Both the position numbers and the translations under genes were made by a program. The notes beneath the pieces were generated by a model. It was given only the letters and a program-made list of their open reading frames with translations, ran no database searches and was not told where the DNA came from. A DNA stretch of 10,374 nt from Candidatus Methylomirabilota bacterium. Lineage in GTDB: Bacteria; Methylomirabilota; Methylomirabilia; Rokubacteriales; CSP1-6. The stretch lies in assembly GCA_046726415.1 (NCBI GenBank), contig JBKPAK010000126.1, forward strand, positions 1 to 10,374. The letters are read 5' to 3'. Positions 1 through 10,374 of the stretch are shown here, piece by piece (position 1 is the first letter of the stretch; each line of letters begins with the position of its first letter).

Positions 1-72
1 GAGATCTATCGCGTGCTGCAGATCCCGGACGAGGTCATGAAGCCGGTCAAGACCTGGACGACCAGCCGATAG
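1..72 (+). CDS. 3' end of a CDS truncated by the window edge (EIYRVLQIPDEVMKPVKTWTTSR*); probable IS1634-family transposase C-terminus
   Basis: Frame 1 is open from base 1 to TAG at 70-72 with GC3-rich codons. The peptide resembles the C-terminal tails I recall for IS1634-type transposases and is followed by an IS-like end. Only 23 aa are visible. Confidence 0.5.
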   Translation, partial: EIYRVLQIPDEVMKPVKTWTTSR

Positions 73-137
73 TGACGCAACGAGCTCGCAACTCCCCGGA
101 ATCGCAGCATTCTAATCCGCCGACCGTGGAAGTTGGG
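1..137 (+). mobile_element. Probable right end of an insertion sequence (IS1634-like), ending ...GTGGAAGTTGGG and followed by CTAA
   Basis: The stop sits in TAGTGAC, followed by a short spacer, GGAAGTTGGG (128-137) and CTAA (138-141). This layout matches IS1634-like ends as I recall them. The left end is outside the window, so the inverted repeat and target duplication cannot be verified. Confidence 0.45.
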
Positions 138-158
138 CTAACCGGGCGGCGCGGGCGG

Positions 159-956
159 TCAGCGCTCGACCAGCGACGCCGTGAGCCGCGCGAACTCCTC
201 GAGGTCGAGCGTTTCCGCGCGCCGGGCCGGATTGATCCCGGCGCCCACCAGAATTTCCCGCGTCCGCCCGGTCGAGAGCGACAGGCTCGCCGCGAGCGCA
301 TTGCCCAGCATCTTCCGGCGCTGGGCGAAGGCGGCTCGCACGATTGTCCGAAAGTGCCCCTCGTCGGCCACCGCCACGCGGGGCTGCGGCAGCACCGTGA
401 GCTTCACCACTGCCGATTCCACCTTGGGGGGGGGCCGGAAGGCGCCCGGTGGCACGCGCAGGATCACGCGGGCGTCACACCCGAGCTGAACCAGGACCGA
501 GAGGCTCCCGTAACTCCGGCTGCCCGGGGCGGCGGCCACGCGCTCCGCCACCTCGCGCTGAAGCATCACCACCATCTCGTCGATGGCCTCGCGCGCCTCC
601 ACCAGCGCCACGAGAATCGCCGTTCCGACGCTGTAGGGCAGGTTCCCGACGATCAGCACGCGCCCCCCCAAGGGACGCCGGATCGCCGCGTAGTCCCAGC
701 GCTGCGCGTCGGCCTCCACCACCTCGACGCCGGGAAACCGCGTTCGCAGCGAAGAGACCAGTGAGCGATCGATCTCGAGGGCCATCAGATGCCCGGCGCG
801 TCGCGCCAGCTCTGCGGTGAGGGCTCCCTCGCCAGGGCCGATCTCGACCACGAGATCGGAGGGGCGCGGGGCGACGGTATCGACAATGGCCCGCGCGATG
901 CCGGCGTCGCGAAGGAAGTGCTGGCCGAGGGCGCGCCGGCGGGGCCGCGCGGTCAC
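159..956 (-). CDS. rsmA: 16S rRNA (adenine-N6,N6)-dimethyltransferase RsmA/KsgA, 265 aa
   Basis: Motifs LGQHFL, VVEIGPGEGALT (SAM binding), GNLPY, MLQREVAER, FRPPPKVES, FAQRRKML and RRAETL. The GTG start overlaps the coaE stop (GTGA, 953-956). Confidence 0.97.
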   Translation of the reverse strand: MTARPRRRALGQHFLRDAGIARAIVDTVAPRPSDLVVEIGPGEGALTAELARRAGHLMALEIDRSLVSSLRTRFPGVEVVEADAQRWDYAAIRRPLGGRVLIVGNLPYSVGTAILVALVEAREAIDEMVVMLQREVAERVAAAPGSRSYGSLSVLVQLGCDARVILRVPPGAFRPPPKVESAVVKLTVLPQPRVAVADEGHFRTIVRAAFAQRRKMLGNALAASLSLSTGRTREILVGAGINPARRAETLDLEEFARLTASLVER

Positions 957-1591
957 CGCGCGGGGGCGGCCCGCCGCGCGCGCAATTCGGCCAGGAGCGC
1001 GGCATGGACGCGCTGCGTCTGAGCCTCGGTGGCTGAGCGATCGCCGGCGTTGTCGATGACGTAGTCGGCAAGCTTGGCCTTGTCCGCCACGGGCATCTGA
1101 CTCGCCATCTTGCGCTCCGCGTCGCCCTCGTCGACGCCGTCGCGCTCCCGCAGCCGCTCGCGCTGGGTGACCTCGTCGGTGGCGACCACGACCAGGCGGT
1201 CCATCTTCCGGTAGTTGCCGCTCTCGATCATCACGGGGGCGTCGAAGATCACGATACCCTCGAATCCCAGGGCGGTCAGCTCGTGCAATTGCTCGGCGAA
1301 GCGCTGGCGAATGCGAGGATGCGTGATCGCCTCCAGCCGCCGCCGCCGCGCCGGATCCGCAAACACGATGGCGCCAAGCCGCTTGCGATCGAGCGTGCCG
1401 TCTGGCTGCACCACGTCCTGGCCGAACTCCGCGACGATATCCCGGTACGCGGCCTCCCCCGGCTTCACCACTTCACGCGCCAGCACATCGGCGTCGATAA
1501 TCACGCACCCCAGGTCCCGAAACATCGCCGACACTGTGCTCTTCCCCGTCGCGATCCCCCCGGTGAGCCCCACCAGCAAGAACGGCCGCAT
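953..1591 (-). CDS. coaE: Dephospho-CoA kinase, 212 aa (ATG at 1591; the upstream 151 codons of the ORF-track call are not part of the protein)
   Basis: Begins MRPFLLVGLTGGIATGKSTV (P-loop), then IIDAD, LDRKRL, ITHPRI, SQMP and ADYVIDN. Length is typical of CoaE. Confidence 0.96.
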   Translation of the reverse strand: MRPFLLVGLTGGIATGKSTVSAMFRDLGCVIIDADVLAREVVKPGEAAYRDIVAEFGQDVVQPDGTLDRKRLGAIVFADPARRRRLEAITHPRIRQRFAEQLHELTALGFEGIVIFDAPVMIESGNYRKMDRLVVVATDEVTQRERLRERDGVDEGDAERKMASQMPVADKAKLADYVIDNAGDRSATEAQTQRVHAALLAELRARRAAPAR

Positions 1592-1597
1592 GCCTAG

Positions 1598-1866
1598 CCG
1601 CGGTGACTTGTGAACGACCGTAACCGAGAGCTGGGCGGGCAGCACCCGATCCCCCGGGCGAGGGCCTGACCCACCATGACCGTGAGCCGGCCGGGTGGCG
1701 CCGTGGATGGTTCTGCGAGCGTCCGCAGCGTCGGTGAATTCCGGGTGACTCCGGTTGCCCTTGCCCGGCTGTTCGAGGAGTGCTTCGAGCGAGGACGTCG
1801 GCAGAGCCACCCACGGCGACAGGACCCGGCCGCCTCGCGCTCGAGATCGTTCATCGGCAGCTCCAC
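1598..1866. mobile_element. Putative MITE-like / highly structured 269-bp insertion between polA and coaE
   Basis: Flanked by the direct repeat GCCTAG (1592-1597 and 1867-1872). Imperfect inverted ends CTAGCCGCGG-N7-TGAACGA (1594-1617) and TCGTTCA-N9-CCACGCCTAG (1847-1872). Long internal inverted repeats. Removing the insert plus one repeat leaves polA TAG-GC-ATG coaE. Confidence 0.55.
1681..1839 (+). repeat. Long imperfect inverted repeat (hairpin with a branched apex) inside the polA-coaE element
   Basis: CGTGAG 1681-1686 pairs with CTCGCG 1834-1839. CGGCCGGGT 1688-1696 pairs with ACCCGGCCG 1824-1832. CGCCGTGGATGGTTCTGC 1699-1716 pairs with GCAGAGCCACCCACGGCG 1801-1818 (16/18 Watson-Crick). 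CGTCC 1720-1724 pairs with GGACG 1793-1797. Apical hairpins at 1741-1768 and 1771-1790. Confidence 0.85.
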
Positions 1867-1868
1867 GC

Positions 1869-4451
1869 CTAGACCTGCGACCAGTCAGACCCGGTCTTGA
1901 CGTCGACCACCACCGGGACGTCGAGCGGGAGAGCGTCGGCCATGATCTCGCTGGCCAGGCGCTCGACCTCCGAAACCTCGTCGGCCGGCGCCTCGAAGAG
2001 CAGCTCGTCGTGCACCTGGAGCAGCATGCGCGCGGCCAAGCCACGCGCCTGGAGGGCCTCGTGCACGCGAACCATCGCGATCTTGATCATGTCGCTGGCC
2101 GTGCCCTGCACCGGCGCGTTCATGGCCATCCGCTCGGCCGCATTGCGCGCCACCGGGTTCGTGGACTTGAGATCCGGCAGATAGCGTCGGCGGCCAAGCA
2201 GCGTGGTGACGTAGCCGCGCTCGCGTCCCTCCGCGACCGTGCGGTCGATGAACGCGCGCACGCGAGGGTGCATCGCGAAGTACTCGTTGATGTAGCGCTG
2301 GGCTTCCTTCTGGTCGATCTTGGTGGCCTGGGAAAGGCCGAAGGCGGAGACTCCGTACAGGATGGCGAAGTTGGCGCTCTTGGCGATGGTGCGCTGAAGC
2401 GGGGTGACCTCCTCGGGTGGGACTTTGAACACCTCGGCGGCCGTGCGGCGGTGAATGTCCTCCCCGCGCTGGAAGGATGCGATGATGGCCGGCTCCCCCG
2501 AAAGGTGCGCGAAGATTCGCAGCTCGATCTGGGAGTAGTCGGCGGCCACGAAGCGCCAACCCTCCTCGGGAATGAAGGCGGCCCGGATCCGGCGGCCCAG
2601 TTCCGTCCGGATGGGAATGTTCATGAGGTTGGGATCCTGCGAGCTGAGGCGTCCGGTGGCGGCTACCAGCTGATTGAAGGTCGTGTGGATCCGCCCCGTG
2701 TCGCGGTTCACCAGGACGGGTAAGGCGTCGGCGTACGTCCCCTTCAGCTTGGAGAGCGTTCGGTGCTCGAGCACCTTGGCCGGCAGCGGATGTCCGAGGC
2801 TGAGGTCGGTCAGCACGTCGACGTCGGTCGAGTAGCCGGTCTTGGTCCGGCGGGCCCGCGGCAGCTTGAGCTTCTCGAACAGGATGTGGGCAAGCTGCTT
2901 GGGGGAGGCGATGGTGAACTCCTCGCCAGCCAAGGCGTAGATCTCGCGCGTCAGATTGTCGAGCTGGCGCTCCAGTTCTTTCGCGAAGTCCTCCAGGCGG
3001 CGGGGGTCGACGCGGATGCCATGGCACTCCATGAGCGCGAGCACTGGCACCAGGGGCCGCTCGATGTCCTCGTAGATCCGGAGAAGATCGCGGGCCTCCA
3101 GCTCCGCGCGCGCGTGCTCCCAGTAGCGCCAGACCCACTGTGCGCGCGCGCCCAGCACCGCGTTCAGGTCGCCATCCGCGGCGCCCGCACCCGGAGCGGG
3201 CATCGACGGCGGGCACGACCCGAACGCCTCCATGCAGATCTCGTCGAGGCGGTACGTCTGACGCGCGGGATTGAGGAGGTATGAGGCCACCGCGCTGTCC
3301 TCCACGCGTCCCTGGCGGGCGCCGGAGGCCAGCCACCACTCGGCGACGGGCTTGGCGTCGTGGACGACCAACTCACGCGCGCCGAGCGCCGCCGTCAGGA
3401 CTTCCGCCGGCGCCGCCGCGGCGCCGATTTGGGGATGAAACAGCGCGGCCGCGAGCATGCGCGGAGCGGGTGGCCGGCTCTCGCCCGCCCACTCCAGCGC
3501 GAGTGGCGCGTCCGCGGGCGCGCCCCCGAGCCACGCCGCGAAGGTCTCGGGCGTCGTCAGCATGTCTACCGGCTCCGCTCTCGTCTCGACCTTCAGGACC
3601 GGAAGCTCCTTGACGAGCCGGGTGAACTCCATCTCCATCCACAGCGCCCGAAGCCTGACCCAGTCTGGCTCCACCCGTCGGAACGCCTCGAGGTCGAAGG
3701 CCAACGGCACGGAGTGCGACAGTACCGCCAGCTCTCGCGAGAGCACGGCCTGCTTGCGCTGGGTGGCCAAGGTCTCGCGGAGCTTGCCGGAAACGAGCGA
3801 GAGGTTCTCGTACAGCCGCTCTACGCTGCCGAACTGGCTGATCAGCTTGACCGCGGTTTTCTCCCCCACCCCTTTCACGCCGGGAATGTTGTCGATGGTG
3901 TCGCCCATGAGGGCGAGCACATCGGCGATCTGACCGGGATCCACACCCCAGCGCTCCCGCACCTTGGCCTCGTCGTAGACTACGCGTTCACCGGTTCGAC
4001 CCAACACGGACAAGGCGCGCACGCCCGGGCCGACGAGCTGCAGCAGATCCTTGTCCCCACTGACGACGGTGATATCGACGCTGTGAGCGCGCGCGTGGTC
4101 CACCAAGGTGGCCAGCACGTCGTCCGCCTCGAACCCCGCCACCTCTATCACAGGCACGCGCAGGGCTTCGAACAATCGCCGCACATAGGGAAGCTGCTGG
4201 ACCAGGTCGTTGGGCATCGATGTCCGGGTGGCCTTGTACTCGGCGAAAAGGTTGTCCCGGAACGTTGGACCCGGCGGGTCCCAGGCGATCCCCAGGTAGT
4301 CGGGCTGCTCCTCGCGAATGAGCTTCCACAGCATCGTGCTCAGGATGAGCACGGCATGAGTGGGGACGCCTTTCGATGTGGAGAGGAAGCCCACCGCGTG
4401 GTAAGCGCGAAAGAGATGCGAATGCCCGTCGACGATGTAAAAGCTCGGCAT
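1869..4451 (-). CDS. polA: DNA polymerase I, 860 aa (5'-3' nuclease, degenerate 3'-5' exonuclease-like domain, family A polymerase)
   Basis: 5' nuclease motifs VDGHSHLFRAYHA, FEADD, SGDKD and GDTIDNIPGVKGVGEKTA. Polymerase motifs TGRLSSQDPNL, ADYSQIELR (A), RTIAKSANFAILYG (B) and LQVHDELLF (C). Confidence 0.98.
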   Translation of the reverse strand: MPSFYIVDGHSHLFRAYHAVGFLSTSKGVPTHAVLILSTMLWKLIREEQPDYLGIAWDPPGPTFRDNLFAEYKATRTSMPNDLVQQLPYVRRLFEALRVPVIEVAGFEADDVLATLVDHARAHSVDITVVSGDKDLLQLVGPGVRALSVLGRTGERVVYDEAKVRERWGVDPGQIADVLALMGDTIDNIPGVKGVGEKTAVKLISQFGSVERLYENLSLVSGKLRETLATQRKQAVLSRELAVLSHSVPLAFDLEAFRRVEPDWVRLRALWMEMEFTRLVKELPVLKVETRAEPVDMLTTPETFAAWLGGAPADAPLALEWAGESRPPAPRMLAAALFHPQIGAAAAPAEVLTAALGARELVVHDAKPVAEWWLASGARQGRVEDSAVASYLLNPARQTYRLDEICMEAFGSCPPSMPAPGAGAADGDLNAVLGARAQWVWRYWEHARAELEARDLLRIYEDIERPLVPVLALMECHGIRVDPRRLEDFAKELERQLDNLTREIYALAGEEFTIASPKQLAHILFEKLKLPRARRTKTGYSTDVDVLTDLSLGHPLPAKVLEHRTLSKLKGTYADALPVLVNRDTGRIHTTFNQLVAATGRLSSQDPNLMNIPIRTELGRRIRAAFIPEEGWRFVAADYSQIELRIFAHLSGEPAIIASFQRGEDIHRRTAAEVFKVPPEEVTPLQRTIAKSANFAILYGVSAFGLSQATKIDQKEAQRYINEYFAMHPRVRAFIDRTVAEGRERGYVTTLLGRRRYLPDLKSTNPVARNAAERMAMNAPVQGTASDMIKIAMVRVHEALQARGLAARMLLQVHDELLFEAPADEVSEVERLASEIMADALPLDVPVVVDVKTGSDWSQV

Positions 4452-4538: not shown

Positions 4539-8755
<4,217 letters not shown>

Positions 8756-8759
<4 letters not shown>

Positions 8760-10168
8760 GTGGTCCGAGCCTCCGCGACGGCCTGAGCGCGCTGCAGCCG
8801 CGCAAGCACCTCGTCGCGGCCGACAAGGGCCAGAACGTCGAAGATCGGCGGGGAGGCCGTGCGTCCGGTCACGGCGAGCCGGGCGAGCTGGGCCAGGTCC
8901 ACCAGCTTGAGCCCCATCTCAGCGGCGAGCGTGCGCACCGCATGCTCGAGGGCGGCCGGGGTGAACTCCTCGAGCTGGGTCAGGGAGGCGATGAGACAGA
9001 CGAGCCGGCGCGCTCCTTCCGGAGTGAAGAGCTTCGTCGAGGCCTTAGCCTCGTACGTCGCCGGAGCCTCGAAGTAAAAGCGCGCCTGCTCTACCAGCTC
9101 CGCCAAGGTCTTGGCGCGCTCCTTCAAGGTGTCGGCCACGCGGGCGAGCCAGGCATCGTCGGCGCCCTCACCCAGGCCTGCCGCGGTCAGGAAGGGCCGC
9201 AGCCGCGCCGCCAGCTCTGCGCCGGGCATGGTCTTCAAGTAGTGCTGGGACAGCCACTCGAGCTTGGTGATGTCGAAGATCGCCCCCGAGGCGCCGACGC
9301 CCTTGATGTCGAAGAGCGCCGCCAGCTCTTCGCGCGAGAAGATCTCCTGGTCGCCGTGGGACCAGCCCAGGCGCGCCAGATAGTTGACCATGGCCTCGGG
9401 GAGAATGCCGGCGTCCCGAAACGCCTGCACCGACGTGGCACCGTGGCGCTTGGACAGGCGGCTTCGATCCGCGCCGAGGACCATGGGGACGTGCGCGAAG
9501 GCAGGCGCGGTGTAGTCGAGGGCCTCGTAGCAGAGGATCTGCTTGGGCGTGTTCGACAGGTGATCGTCCGCGCGGATGACGTGGCTGATCCGCATGGTGA
9601 CGTCGTCGACGACCACACAGAAGTTGTAAGTCGGGGTGCCGTCGGTTCGCACGAGGATCCAGTCGTCGAGTTGCTGGTGGTCGAAGGTCACAGTGCCGTG
9701 GATGAGGTCGTCCACGACCGTGGCTCCGGCCTCCGGAAGCTTCAAGCGCAGAGCCCCTGCGGTCAGCCCACGCTCCCGGCAACGGCCCGAGTAACGGAAG
9801 GTCTCACCGCGCTGTTGAGCCTTCTCGCGCTCCCGGTCGAGCAGCGCTGGTGAGCAATCGCAATAGTAGGCGCGGGCGGCGCGCCGCAGGCGTGCCGCGT
9901 GCTCGGCGTAGATCTCGAGGCGCTCTGTCTGGCGGTATCCGGTGGTCGGCGGGCCCTCGTCCCAGTCGAGGCCAAGCCATTGCAGGGCCTCGATGATCGA
10001 ACCGATGTTCTCCTCGGTGGAGCGAGAGCGATCCGTGTCCTCGATGCGGAGGATGAACTGCCCGCCATGGCGGCGGGCGAAAAGCCAGTTGAAGAGGGCG
10101 GTCCGCGCTCCGCCCACGTGGAGGTGCCCGGTGGGACTCGGCGCGAAGCGAACACGGACCGGCTTCAT
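8756..10168 (-). CDS. gltX: Glutamate--tRNA ligase, 470 aa (ATG at 10168)
   Basis: VRVRFAPSPTGHLHVGGARTALFN (HIGH motif), LRIEDTD, YYCDCS...YSGRCR (Zn-site-like), HVIRADDHLSNTPKQ, RLSKRH (KMSKS-like) and a C-terminal anticodon-binding domain (RLAVTGRTASP). Confidence 0.97.
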
Positions 10169-10175
10169 CGCTTGA

Positions 10176-10181
10176 AGTGTA
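10176..10181 (-). promoter_or_regulatory. Possible -10 element (TACACT) 7 nt upstream of the gltX ATG
   Basis: The minus strand reads GAGGG-TACACT-TCAAGCG-ATG, which fits TAnnnT. No recognisable -35. Confidence 0.35.
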
Positions 10182-10194
10182 CCCTCTTTGGAGT

Positions 10195-10374
10195 TTGGAG
10201 GGGGCGCGACGCCCCCTCCAATCCTCCCCCGCCGCGCGGCGGGCGACGGCGCGCTCATCCAACCTCGACTGGGTTCTTGGCGGGGGCGCGACGCCCCGCA
10301 TTTCCAGCGCCGGCCCTGCCGGCGCAGTCGCGTGTGACACCCCGCGCGCTTGGGGGGTTTGGGGGGGCCTAGGC
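10195..10374. repeat. Cluster of GC-rich palindromic (REP/MITE-like) repeats, truncated at the window edge
   Basis: Perfect 12-bp stem TTGGAGGGGGCG-cga-CGCCCCCTCCAA (10195-10221). 16-bp palindrome CCCGCCGCGCGGCGGG (10228-10243). GGGGGCGCGACGCCCC occurs at both 10200-10215 and 10282-10297. 8-bp stem GCGCCGGC-cct-GCCGGCGC (10307-10325). A G-rich unit starts at 10350. Confidence 0.8.

Follow-up and report, generated by a model that had tools for sequence, protein, structure and literature searches.

The closest described counterparts of the DNA considered here, a 277-nt spacer between polA and coaE of a Candidatus Methylomirabilota bacterium, are found among small mobile elements with CTAG-containing targets and among short palindromic elements of transcribed intergenic regions. 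To the former belongs MITEPsy1 of Pseudomonas syringae, a transposable element of the miniature inverted-repeat type (MITE) described as 100 nt long, as having 18-nt terminal repeats and as duplicating CTAG or YTAA (PMC3189936). Members of the IS481 family of insertion sequences (IS) are reported to generate a 6-bp NCTAGN duplication, and in the published descriptions of ISLxc2 and ISLxx4 a stop codon lies within the insertion site (PMC2516522, PMC3053399). These accounts agree with the proposal, made in a preliminary description of the spacer, that several IS and MITE families use targets of this kind. For mycobacterial interspersed repetitive units (MIRUs), PMC3184786 describes both filled and empty sites, along with short direct repeats and with inverted repeats that are internal and G-C-rich. 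MIRUs are reported to insert at start codons together with a coupled open reading frame (ORF) (PMC12548453), and a relay of ribosomes through the MIRU ORF has been proposed (PMC12548453, PMC3184786). ERIC elements, for which terminal repeats, TA flanks and tens to hundreds of copies are given (PMC10969869, PMC3184786), are co-transcribed and change the decay of the upstream mRNA according to PMC3184786. The spacer lies in a stretch of 10,374 nt (contig JBKPAK010000126.1, assembly GCA_046726415.1, Rokubacteriales CSP1-6), referred to below as the window. It is a lineage-specific insertion, and we estimate a probability of roughly 0.55 that the inserted DNA is the relic of a small non-autonomous mobile element, with transposition as the most likely mechanism.

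The junction is made up of the following features.
1869-4451, minus strand: polA, encoding DNA polymerase I of 860 aa (stop codon TAG at 1871-1869; Pfam DNA_pol_A with E 4.7e-159 and both 5'-3' exonuclease domains)
1864-1872: polA-side direct repeat, CACGCCTAG, reading CTAG-GC-GTG on the minus strand, i.e., the polA stop, 2 nt and the GTG that opens ORF90 (see below)
1598-1866: the insert itself, 266-269 bp long according to whether 6 or 9 bp are assigned to the duplication (from the alignment, the junction table and composition)
1589-1597: coaE-side direct repeat, CATGCCTAG, reading CTAG-GC-ATG on the minus strand, i.e., the ORF90 stop, 2 nt and the coaE start
953-1591, minus strand: coaE, encoding dephospho-CoA kinase of 212 aa (start codon ATG at 1591-1589; Pfam CoaE with E 1.3e-57)

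The evidence for an insertion comes from the corresponding junctions of related genomes. A search with the CoaE protein gave 80 loci, none of them identical to the window, and the best 38 (65-82% identity) form the set of related loci used for comparison, which are designated by L numbers where they need to be told apart. The titles of these best 38 name Rokubacteria, Rokuibacteriota, Methylomirabilota or Methylomirabilia in 35 cases, "uncultured bacterium" in 2 and "Binatia" in 1. polA is located directly upstream of coaE and on the same strand in 36 of the 38, the exceptions being L004 and L033, which have no polA upstream. Empty-site orthologues, to which the preliminary description had looked for a test, are abundant: the extrapolated gap between the two genes is -4 to +16 nt in 30 of these 36 loci, mostly a GTGA overlap or a few bases, and none of the 36 contains anything alignable to the insert. 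Three further loci have a gap of 32-49 nt, and in the last three the genes are separated by 1.0, 2.4 and 5.5 kb with other ORFs. When the window was aligned with relatives, a single clean gap of about 270 nt was obtained in eight of eight cases, and a comparison of the insert with all 80 loci produced no alignment above the empirical tail. The spacer at 1592-1868 is thus a real lineage-specific insertion and the footprint of one event. Its G+C content is like that of the genome, with 70% for the insert and 69% for the window.

In L037, the nearest of the relatives (CoaE 82% identical in the part that matched), the junction consists of TAG, 10 nt and GTG. L037 shares its TAG stop with L029 only, since among the 36 relatives polA ends in TGA in 33 and in TAA in L007. 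The PolA and CoaE matches of L037 stop or shift frame at about 9889-9892 and about 10444, and these broken matches suggest frameshift errors in that assembly. The three loci with widely separated genes (L028 217-2642, L029 8988-9997 and L030 4457-9997, the second with an opposite-strand ORF of 328 aa) show that the junction was opened more than once in the phylum. The insert was also considered as what is left of the genes lying between polA and coaE in these three loci, and this was rejected, the match being confined to the polA end. A 253-column alignment between the insert and L030 (score 33) lies at the top of the empirical tail (next scores 32 and 30) and within coding sequence. Nor is the insert a duplicate of its neighbours, with z at most 0.96 against polA and coaE and 1.8 against the rest of the window, and a 16-nt similarity to the P-loop region of coaE is due to chance.

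A second line of evidence is the repeat that flanks the insert. GCCTAG is present at 1592-1597 and at 1867-1872, identical in all six positions and exactly at the two boundaries for which it had been claimed; in its extended form, CATGCCTAG and CACGCCTAG, the repeat agrees in 8 of 9 bases over a distance of 275 nt, and both copies read CTAG-GC-RTG on the coding strand. Removal of the insert together with one repeat restores polA TAG-GC-ATG coaE from the polA TAG (1871-1869) and the coaE ATG (1591-1589). This is the tight junction that the preliminary description had derived, and the GTGA overlaps with which it had compared it are indeed found elsewhere in the cluster, at 953-956 and 8756-8759. 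Its statement that the insertion occurred at the polA stop and left the host gene intact also holds, both flanking genes being intact and the insert being located on the stop codon. The abundance of GCCTAG is in itself at chance level: four strand matches at three places were counted in the window, and 55 of 200 shuffles reach four. What is unusual is its placement, as the hexamer that starts one base before the polA stop recurs directly before the coaE start, and a rough estimate from base composition gives about 3e-4 for a recurrence in exactly this register. CTAG itself occurs four times in the window, the number given earlier, against an expectation of 12.4 +/- 3.3 (at least four in 200 of 200 shuffles), and is therefore avoided; its density is 0.13 per kb in the 594 kb of related loci together with the window. 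A palindrome with the CTAGGC of both repeat copies, GCCTAGGC, is also present at 10367-10374, beside C runs upstream of gltX, where it is cut by the window edge.

A CTAG at either end also brings to mind a restriction fragment with CTAG ends that was ligated into a cut CTAG site, or an assembly chimera. The avoidance of CTAG would fit the presence of a CTAG-cutting enzyme, and the contig, judged by its relatives, comes from a metagenome-type assembly. However, ligation accounts for only four of the eight repeated bases, on each side the neighbouring gene is intact and collinear with its counterparts in relatives, and assembly artefacts of this type are normally found at contig ends; we consider this origin very improbable.

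The insert contains one reading frame that calls for attention.
1594-1866, minus strand: ORF90, GTG to TAG, 90 codons, which fills the insert exactly, with 2 nt between the polA stop and its start and 2 nt between its stop and the coaE start

Were ORF90 a real gene for a small protein, acquired between polA and coaE, its exact fit into the gap and a start and stop spacing like that of the neighbouring junction would be accounted for, and it does have the highest third-position G+C (0.78) of the three minus-strand frames. However, its G+C content by codon position (0.63/0.69/0.78) departs from that of the seven genes of the window (0.59-0.77/0.38-0.53/0.79-0.89), above all at the second position, its codon score is -0.33 bits per codon as compared with a minimum of +0.13 over the 87 in-frame gene windows, and R, S, P and C are abundant in the encoded peptide. 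The same frame is open in 45% of dinucleotide shuffles. No Pfam match was obtained for the insert; word searches retrieved no protein homologue for ORF90, the plus-strand ORF or the read-through in the coaE frame, and the sole hit of ORF90 in a HMMER search against 1.84 billion representatives (E 3e-4) is a tandem-repeat artefact. Codon score, composition and the lack of Pfam matches and homologues led to the rejection of ORF90 as a gene, and an acquired small-protein gene is hardly credible. Two other candidates were rejected: an N-terminally extended CoaE, for which the coaE frame is open up to 2044, is contradicted by composition, and its read-through part has no homologue among 734 candidates, and the plus-strand ORF at 1676-1900 has no homologue and a negative codon score. 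In terms of host codon usage, each of the six frames has a negative score (-0.20 to -0.68 bits per codon), and the insert is non-coding. This agrees with its earlier characterization as transposase-less, and the stretch should not be called a gene in annotations.

The insert is highly structured, and on both strands a single long hairpin takes up the entire spacer (-144 and -147 kcal/mol), with z-scores of -3.1 and -3.7 and none of 200 shuffles folding as well. The following parts were distinguished.
1684-1733: core hairpin arm on the coaE side, which contains CGGGTGGCGC at 1692-1701
1786-1836: core hairpin arm on the polA side, which pairs with 1684-1733 as an imperfect palindrome (score 22.5)
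1734-1785: apical region between the arms, with small local stems in the minimum-free-energy map
1634-1675: side hairpin in the longer coaE-side flank, without a polA-side counterpart and, in the family alignment, seen in the window copy only
1874-1837 with 1592-1631: basal stem in the minimum-free-energy map of the coding strand

The complementarity of the core arms (22.5) compares with a null mean of 8.0 and is reached by 2 of 3000 random pairs (p about 7e-4), and the core pairs with a probability of 0.84-1.0 in every flank context, while the basal stem has a probability of 0.99 with up to 50 nt of flank. The side hairpin makes the element asymmetric. In a scan of the window for palindromes of 281 nt, three positions over the element score 25.5-26.5 and the other 334 of 337 score at most 17.5. 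The significant palindrome of the insert is internal, formed by 1684-1733 and 1786-1836.

Such a structure might have been kept as a functional cis-acting RNA, for example a terminator-like or processing hairpin that uncouples coaE and rsmA from polA, whatever its origin. The stability of the core (pair probability 0.84-1.0, fold z-score -3.1) would suit this role, related palindromes are located directly after stop codons, and ERIC-type elements are described as altering mRNA decay (PMC3184786). On the other hand, the spacer is absent from all 36 relatives with polA directly upstream of coaE and is known as one sequence, it matches no Rfam 15 family at E values up to 1, and promoter and terminator scans placed no such site in it. 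A role of this type has, in our judgement, an outside chance. The sole Rfam match in the window, at 7203-7260, is a chance microRNA hit.

A set of palindromic elements was recognized among the strongest palindromes of the related loci.
L004, 1646-1816: begins on the rsmA stop TAA, with terminal repeats matching at 16 of 20 positions (p 0.005) and TAA at both ends
L010, 5381-5511: begins on the TAG that ends a 409-aa gene (p 0.003)
L005, 12680-12732: short form of 53 nt, with the same ends and in the same place as the 131-nt L010 element and with about 78 nt less of inner hairpin
L033, about 16030-16160: at another locus, truncated where its contig ends
L022, about 2160-2290: at the 3' end of a histidine-phosphatase gene

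The L004 element is absent from the nearest relatives L030 and L033, in which rsmA and rnj adjoin closely, and the match between the L022 and L033 elements scores 42 (92 in a second scoring) as compared with 18 (41) for the best unrelated window. The related genomes thus hold real dispersed palindromic elements that are GC-rich, 130-170 nt long and located at or near stop codons of different loci. Palindromes of this kind may break assemblies, as the L033 copy ends its contig.

Several observations link the window element to this set. A covariance model built on the core sequence alone responds mainly to long GC-rich hairpins of any kind; its E-values were accordingly not taken as a sign of kinship, and only identity counts on its alignment were considered. 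The window core and the L004 element agree at 65 of 87 model-aligned bases (75%), whereas four decoy GC-rich palindromes aligned to the same model gave 59/105, 49/98, 54/113 and 44/80 (48-56%). Among 5828 windows, the best match of the coaE-side arm is the L010 element, and for the other arm the L004 element ties for the top score. CGGGTGGCGC, at 1692-1701 in the window, is the longest invariant block in the alignment of the L004, L033 and L022 elements and lies in the corresponding arm; it occurs seven times in the 38 related loci, three of them in these elements and two others, on inspection by eye, in what looks like coding sequence. Around this block the window and L004 agree at 18 of 20 bases.

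Further palindromes were noted in the phylum. In-frame GC-rich palindromes are present in the polA linker of L007 (8507-8712, within polA at 7268-10000) and L038 (8564-8723); the L007 palindrome brings PolA to 910 aa, as compared with 860 aa in the window, and this arrangement resembles the in-frame palindromic inserts of Rickettsia. Intergenic palindromes without an Rfam match occupy one syntenic place in L017 (1958-2114), L013 (2239-2418) and L026 (2114-2315); their arms differ (46 nt perfect in L017), and the loop is 65 nt in all three.

A considerable number of results weigh against a mobile origin of the insert or against its membership in this set. The terminal inverted repeats are at chance level, with p = 0.32, 0.21 and 0.14 over 30, 45 and 60 nt against CTAG-anchored random pairs and p 0.31 in a second test. 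Of the imperfect inverted-repeat ends proposed in the preliminary description, the quoted end sequences are present, but their complementarity is no better than chance (p 0.14-0.32), the insert ends being complementary only at CTAG and one 7-mer. The multiple copies in relatives that were to support that description did not emerge: a search of 1.3 Mb of related loci in other species, of plasmids and of phages gave no second copy with the same ends, and the 10-kb window has none either. An nhmmer search with a four-member profile retrieved only its own training members among five hits at E up to 10, and no transposase or matching IS end is known for the insert. The window ends are unlike the L004 and L010 terminal repeats (TAR-CGCG...TTCACGA type), with p 0.38-0.88 against 3103 TAG-starting 28-mers, a test that also led to the rejection of a resemblance seen by eye. 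Reverse searches rank the window element 11th to 17th of 2963 with the L004 core and 217th or lower with L033. blastn scores between putative members are 35.6-41 bits, while shuffled queries average 33-37 bits and 29-65% of them reach 35.6; the E-values of 1e-3 to 1e-4 between elements were not used alone, because shuffled queries equal them. Strong palindromes are not rare in the phylum, with 28 distinct regions of at least 25.5 in 594 kb. The basal helix drops to a probability of 0.30 with at least 100 nt of flank, and chance alone would leave ORF90 open and in phase with a probability of about 0.15 (0.45 times one third). The window copy is also about 100 nt longer than the L004, L010, L022 and L033 elements, owing to a larger apex and the side hairpin. 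With both sides considered, there are roughly even odds that the window element belongs to the L004/L010/L022/L033 set.

Several of these results would equally be expected if the DNA had been inserted without a transposase, by break-repair capture, by a template switch or as a hairpin grown in place, with the repeat as the microhomology used for joining. This applies to the lack of significant terminal inverted repeats, to the lack of a second copy with the same ends and to the frequency of GC-rich palindromes in the phylum. The L005 and L010 palindromes, 53 and 131 nt long with the same ends, fit as well and indicate that hairpins at one site change size by internal gain or loss. However, the insert is unlike its flanking genes (z below 2) and unlike anything else in the window or the loci above the empirical tail, the perfect 6-bp repeat (8 of 9 in extended form) is located exactly at the ends, as expected for the product of a staggered transposase cut, and the core has the CGGGTGGCGC motif and 75% of aligned bases in common with dispersed elements elsewhere. 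We therefore regard repair or growth in place as unlikely, and a small non-autonomous mobile element as the preferred origin of the insert.

As to the type of such an element, similarities and differences to all described systems are apparent. In common with CTAG-duplicating MITEs, the insert is small, has no transposase, lies on CTAG, is flanked by a CTAG-containing repeat and has a target that includes a TAG stop. Terminal inverted repeats are a defining feature of MITEs. The insert agrees with a MITE in size, non-coding nature, target duplication and filled and empty sites and differs in its terminal inverted repeats, so that it is not a demonstrated MITE. Its ends differ from the ends published for MITEPsy1 and ISLxc2, and significant terminal inverted repeats are lacking. 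A test for the IS481 type was negative, as the two plus-strand NCTAGN sequences, CCTAGC and CCTAGA, agree at 5 of 6 positions; the perfect hexamer lies one base off this register, there is no known second copy, and the insert has neither a TGT start nor a complementary end, unlike IS481-type ends such as those of ISLxc2.

Like a MIRU, the insert is located between cistrons of a high-G+C host and has filled and empty sites, direct repeats and internal inverted repeats. An ORF runs through it whose ends appear coupled in their geometry to both neighbours, as in the MIRUs described in PMC3184786 and PMC12548453. Differences to the MIRUs as portrayed there (40-100 bp, about 40-50 per genome, 4-nt overlap) are that the insert is about 270 bp long, has been seen once and has 2-nt spacers. 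As in ERIC and other MITEs that are palindromic over their whole length (Nezha, Correia), most of it is one imperfect hairpin in a transcribed intergenic position, but its palindrome is internal, unlike the terminal repeats and TA flanks given for ERIC. With REP/REPIN elements, which are mobilised by RAYT transposases, it shares a GC-rich hairpin at a gene 3' end and the lack of classical terminal repeats, in so far as these are described in PMC3116915 and PMC3733652. A parallel to the Rickettsia palindromic elements (RPE) is provided by the above in-frame palindromic inserts in polA of L007 and L038. REPINs have a conserved head tetranucleotide and are not known to give a target duplication.

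The most likely course of events would be as follows. Hairpin-bearing non-coding DNA of about 266-269 bp would have landed on polA-GTC TAG GC ATG-coaE, and 6-9 bases of the junction would have been duplicated, either CTAGGC or CTAGGCATG with one later change. The most likely agent would be a transposase that, working in trans, moved a palindromic element of a MITE-like or MIRU-like kind, and the target would be the CTAG to which the last polA codon and the TAG stop both contribute, with a staggered cut across it. A single insertion by such a cut would explain both the exact flanking repeat and the intact genes.

The insertion may have been tolerated because the duplication would restore the polA stop and leave the coaE start untouched. 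Two additional ways in which the junction might continue to function can be envisaged. In a relay, the stop-2 nt-start signal would have been copied to both ends of an insert that is open in phase, so that ribosomes ending polA could restart on the GTG of ORF90 and reach a TAG located 2 nt before the coaE ATG. Since an open in-phase frame is expected by chance in about 15% of cases, the relay frame may reflect a survivorship filter rather than design. In the second way, the ends would pair in the unflanked transcript and the insert would loop out, bringing the polA stop beside the coaE start; coupling by RNA unfolding is described over tens of bases in a review of translational coupling (PMC12548453). 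The question of how an operon that is normally joined by GTGA can accommodate 275 nt of structured RNA has here a natural test case. If the mobile origin is correct, the junction shows in clean form the filled and empty sites of a small mobile DNA, in a phylum for which metagenomes are the only source; the event is of an ordinary kind, yet the example is tidy and new.

More speculatively, an undescribed family of mobile elements, GC-rich, palindromic and dispersed, might exist in Rokubacteria; its members would occupy TAG and TAA stops, operon junctions and in-frame positions inside polA of other genomes, and would survive at coupled junctions by means of the copied stop-spacer-start signal and relay or loop-out, the coupling of polA and coaE persisting over 275 nt. 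We consider this wider proposal doubtful. A literature search on Rokubacteria, partly screened by title, retrieved no account of such mobile or palindromic elements.

Every recognisable gene of the window is encoded on the minus strand, and the remaining genes, assigned from the ORF list and Pfam, are arranged as follows.
8756-10258, minus strand: gltX
8133-8759, minus strand: histidine-phosphatase gene
7646-8284, minus strand: ORF containing glnB (P-II domain)
4539-7547, minus strand: glnE
159-956, minus strand: rsmA, whose start overlaps the coaE stop as GTGA at 953-956

At the other end of the window (1-160), the end of a plus-strand ORF, of which 23 aa are visible and whose stop is at 70-72, converges on rsmA. 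No informative match in the related loci was obtained for this ORF end (1-72) or for a supposed IS end at 128-137. Upstream of rnj, which encodes an RNase J-like protein, a conserved promoter-like block of the form GAAACTTCGG ... TACGATGA ... GAAAGGAG is present in several relatives, e.g., L010 (5520-5580), L005, L019 and L037.

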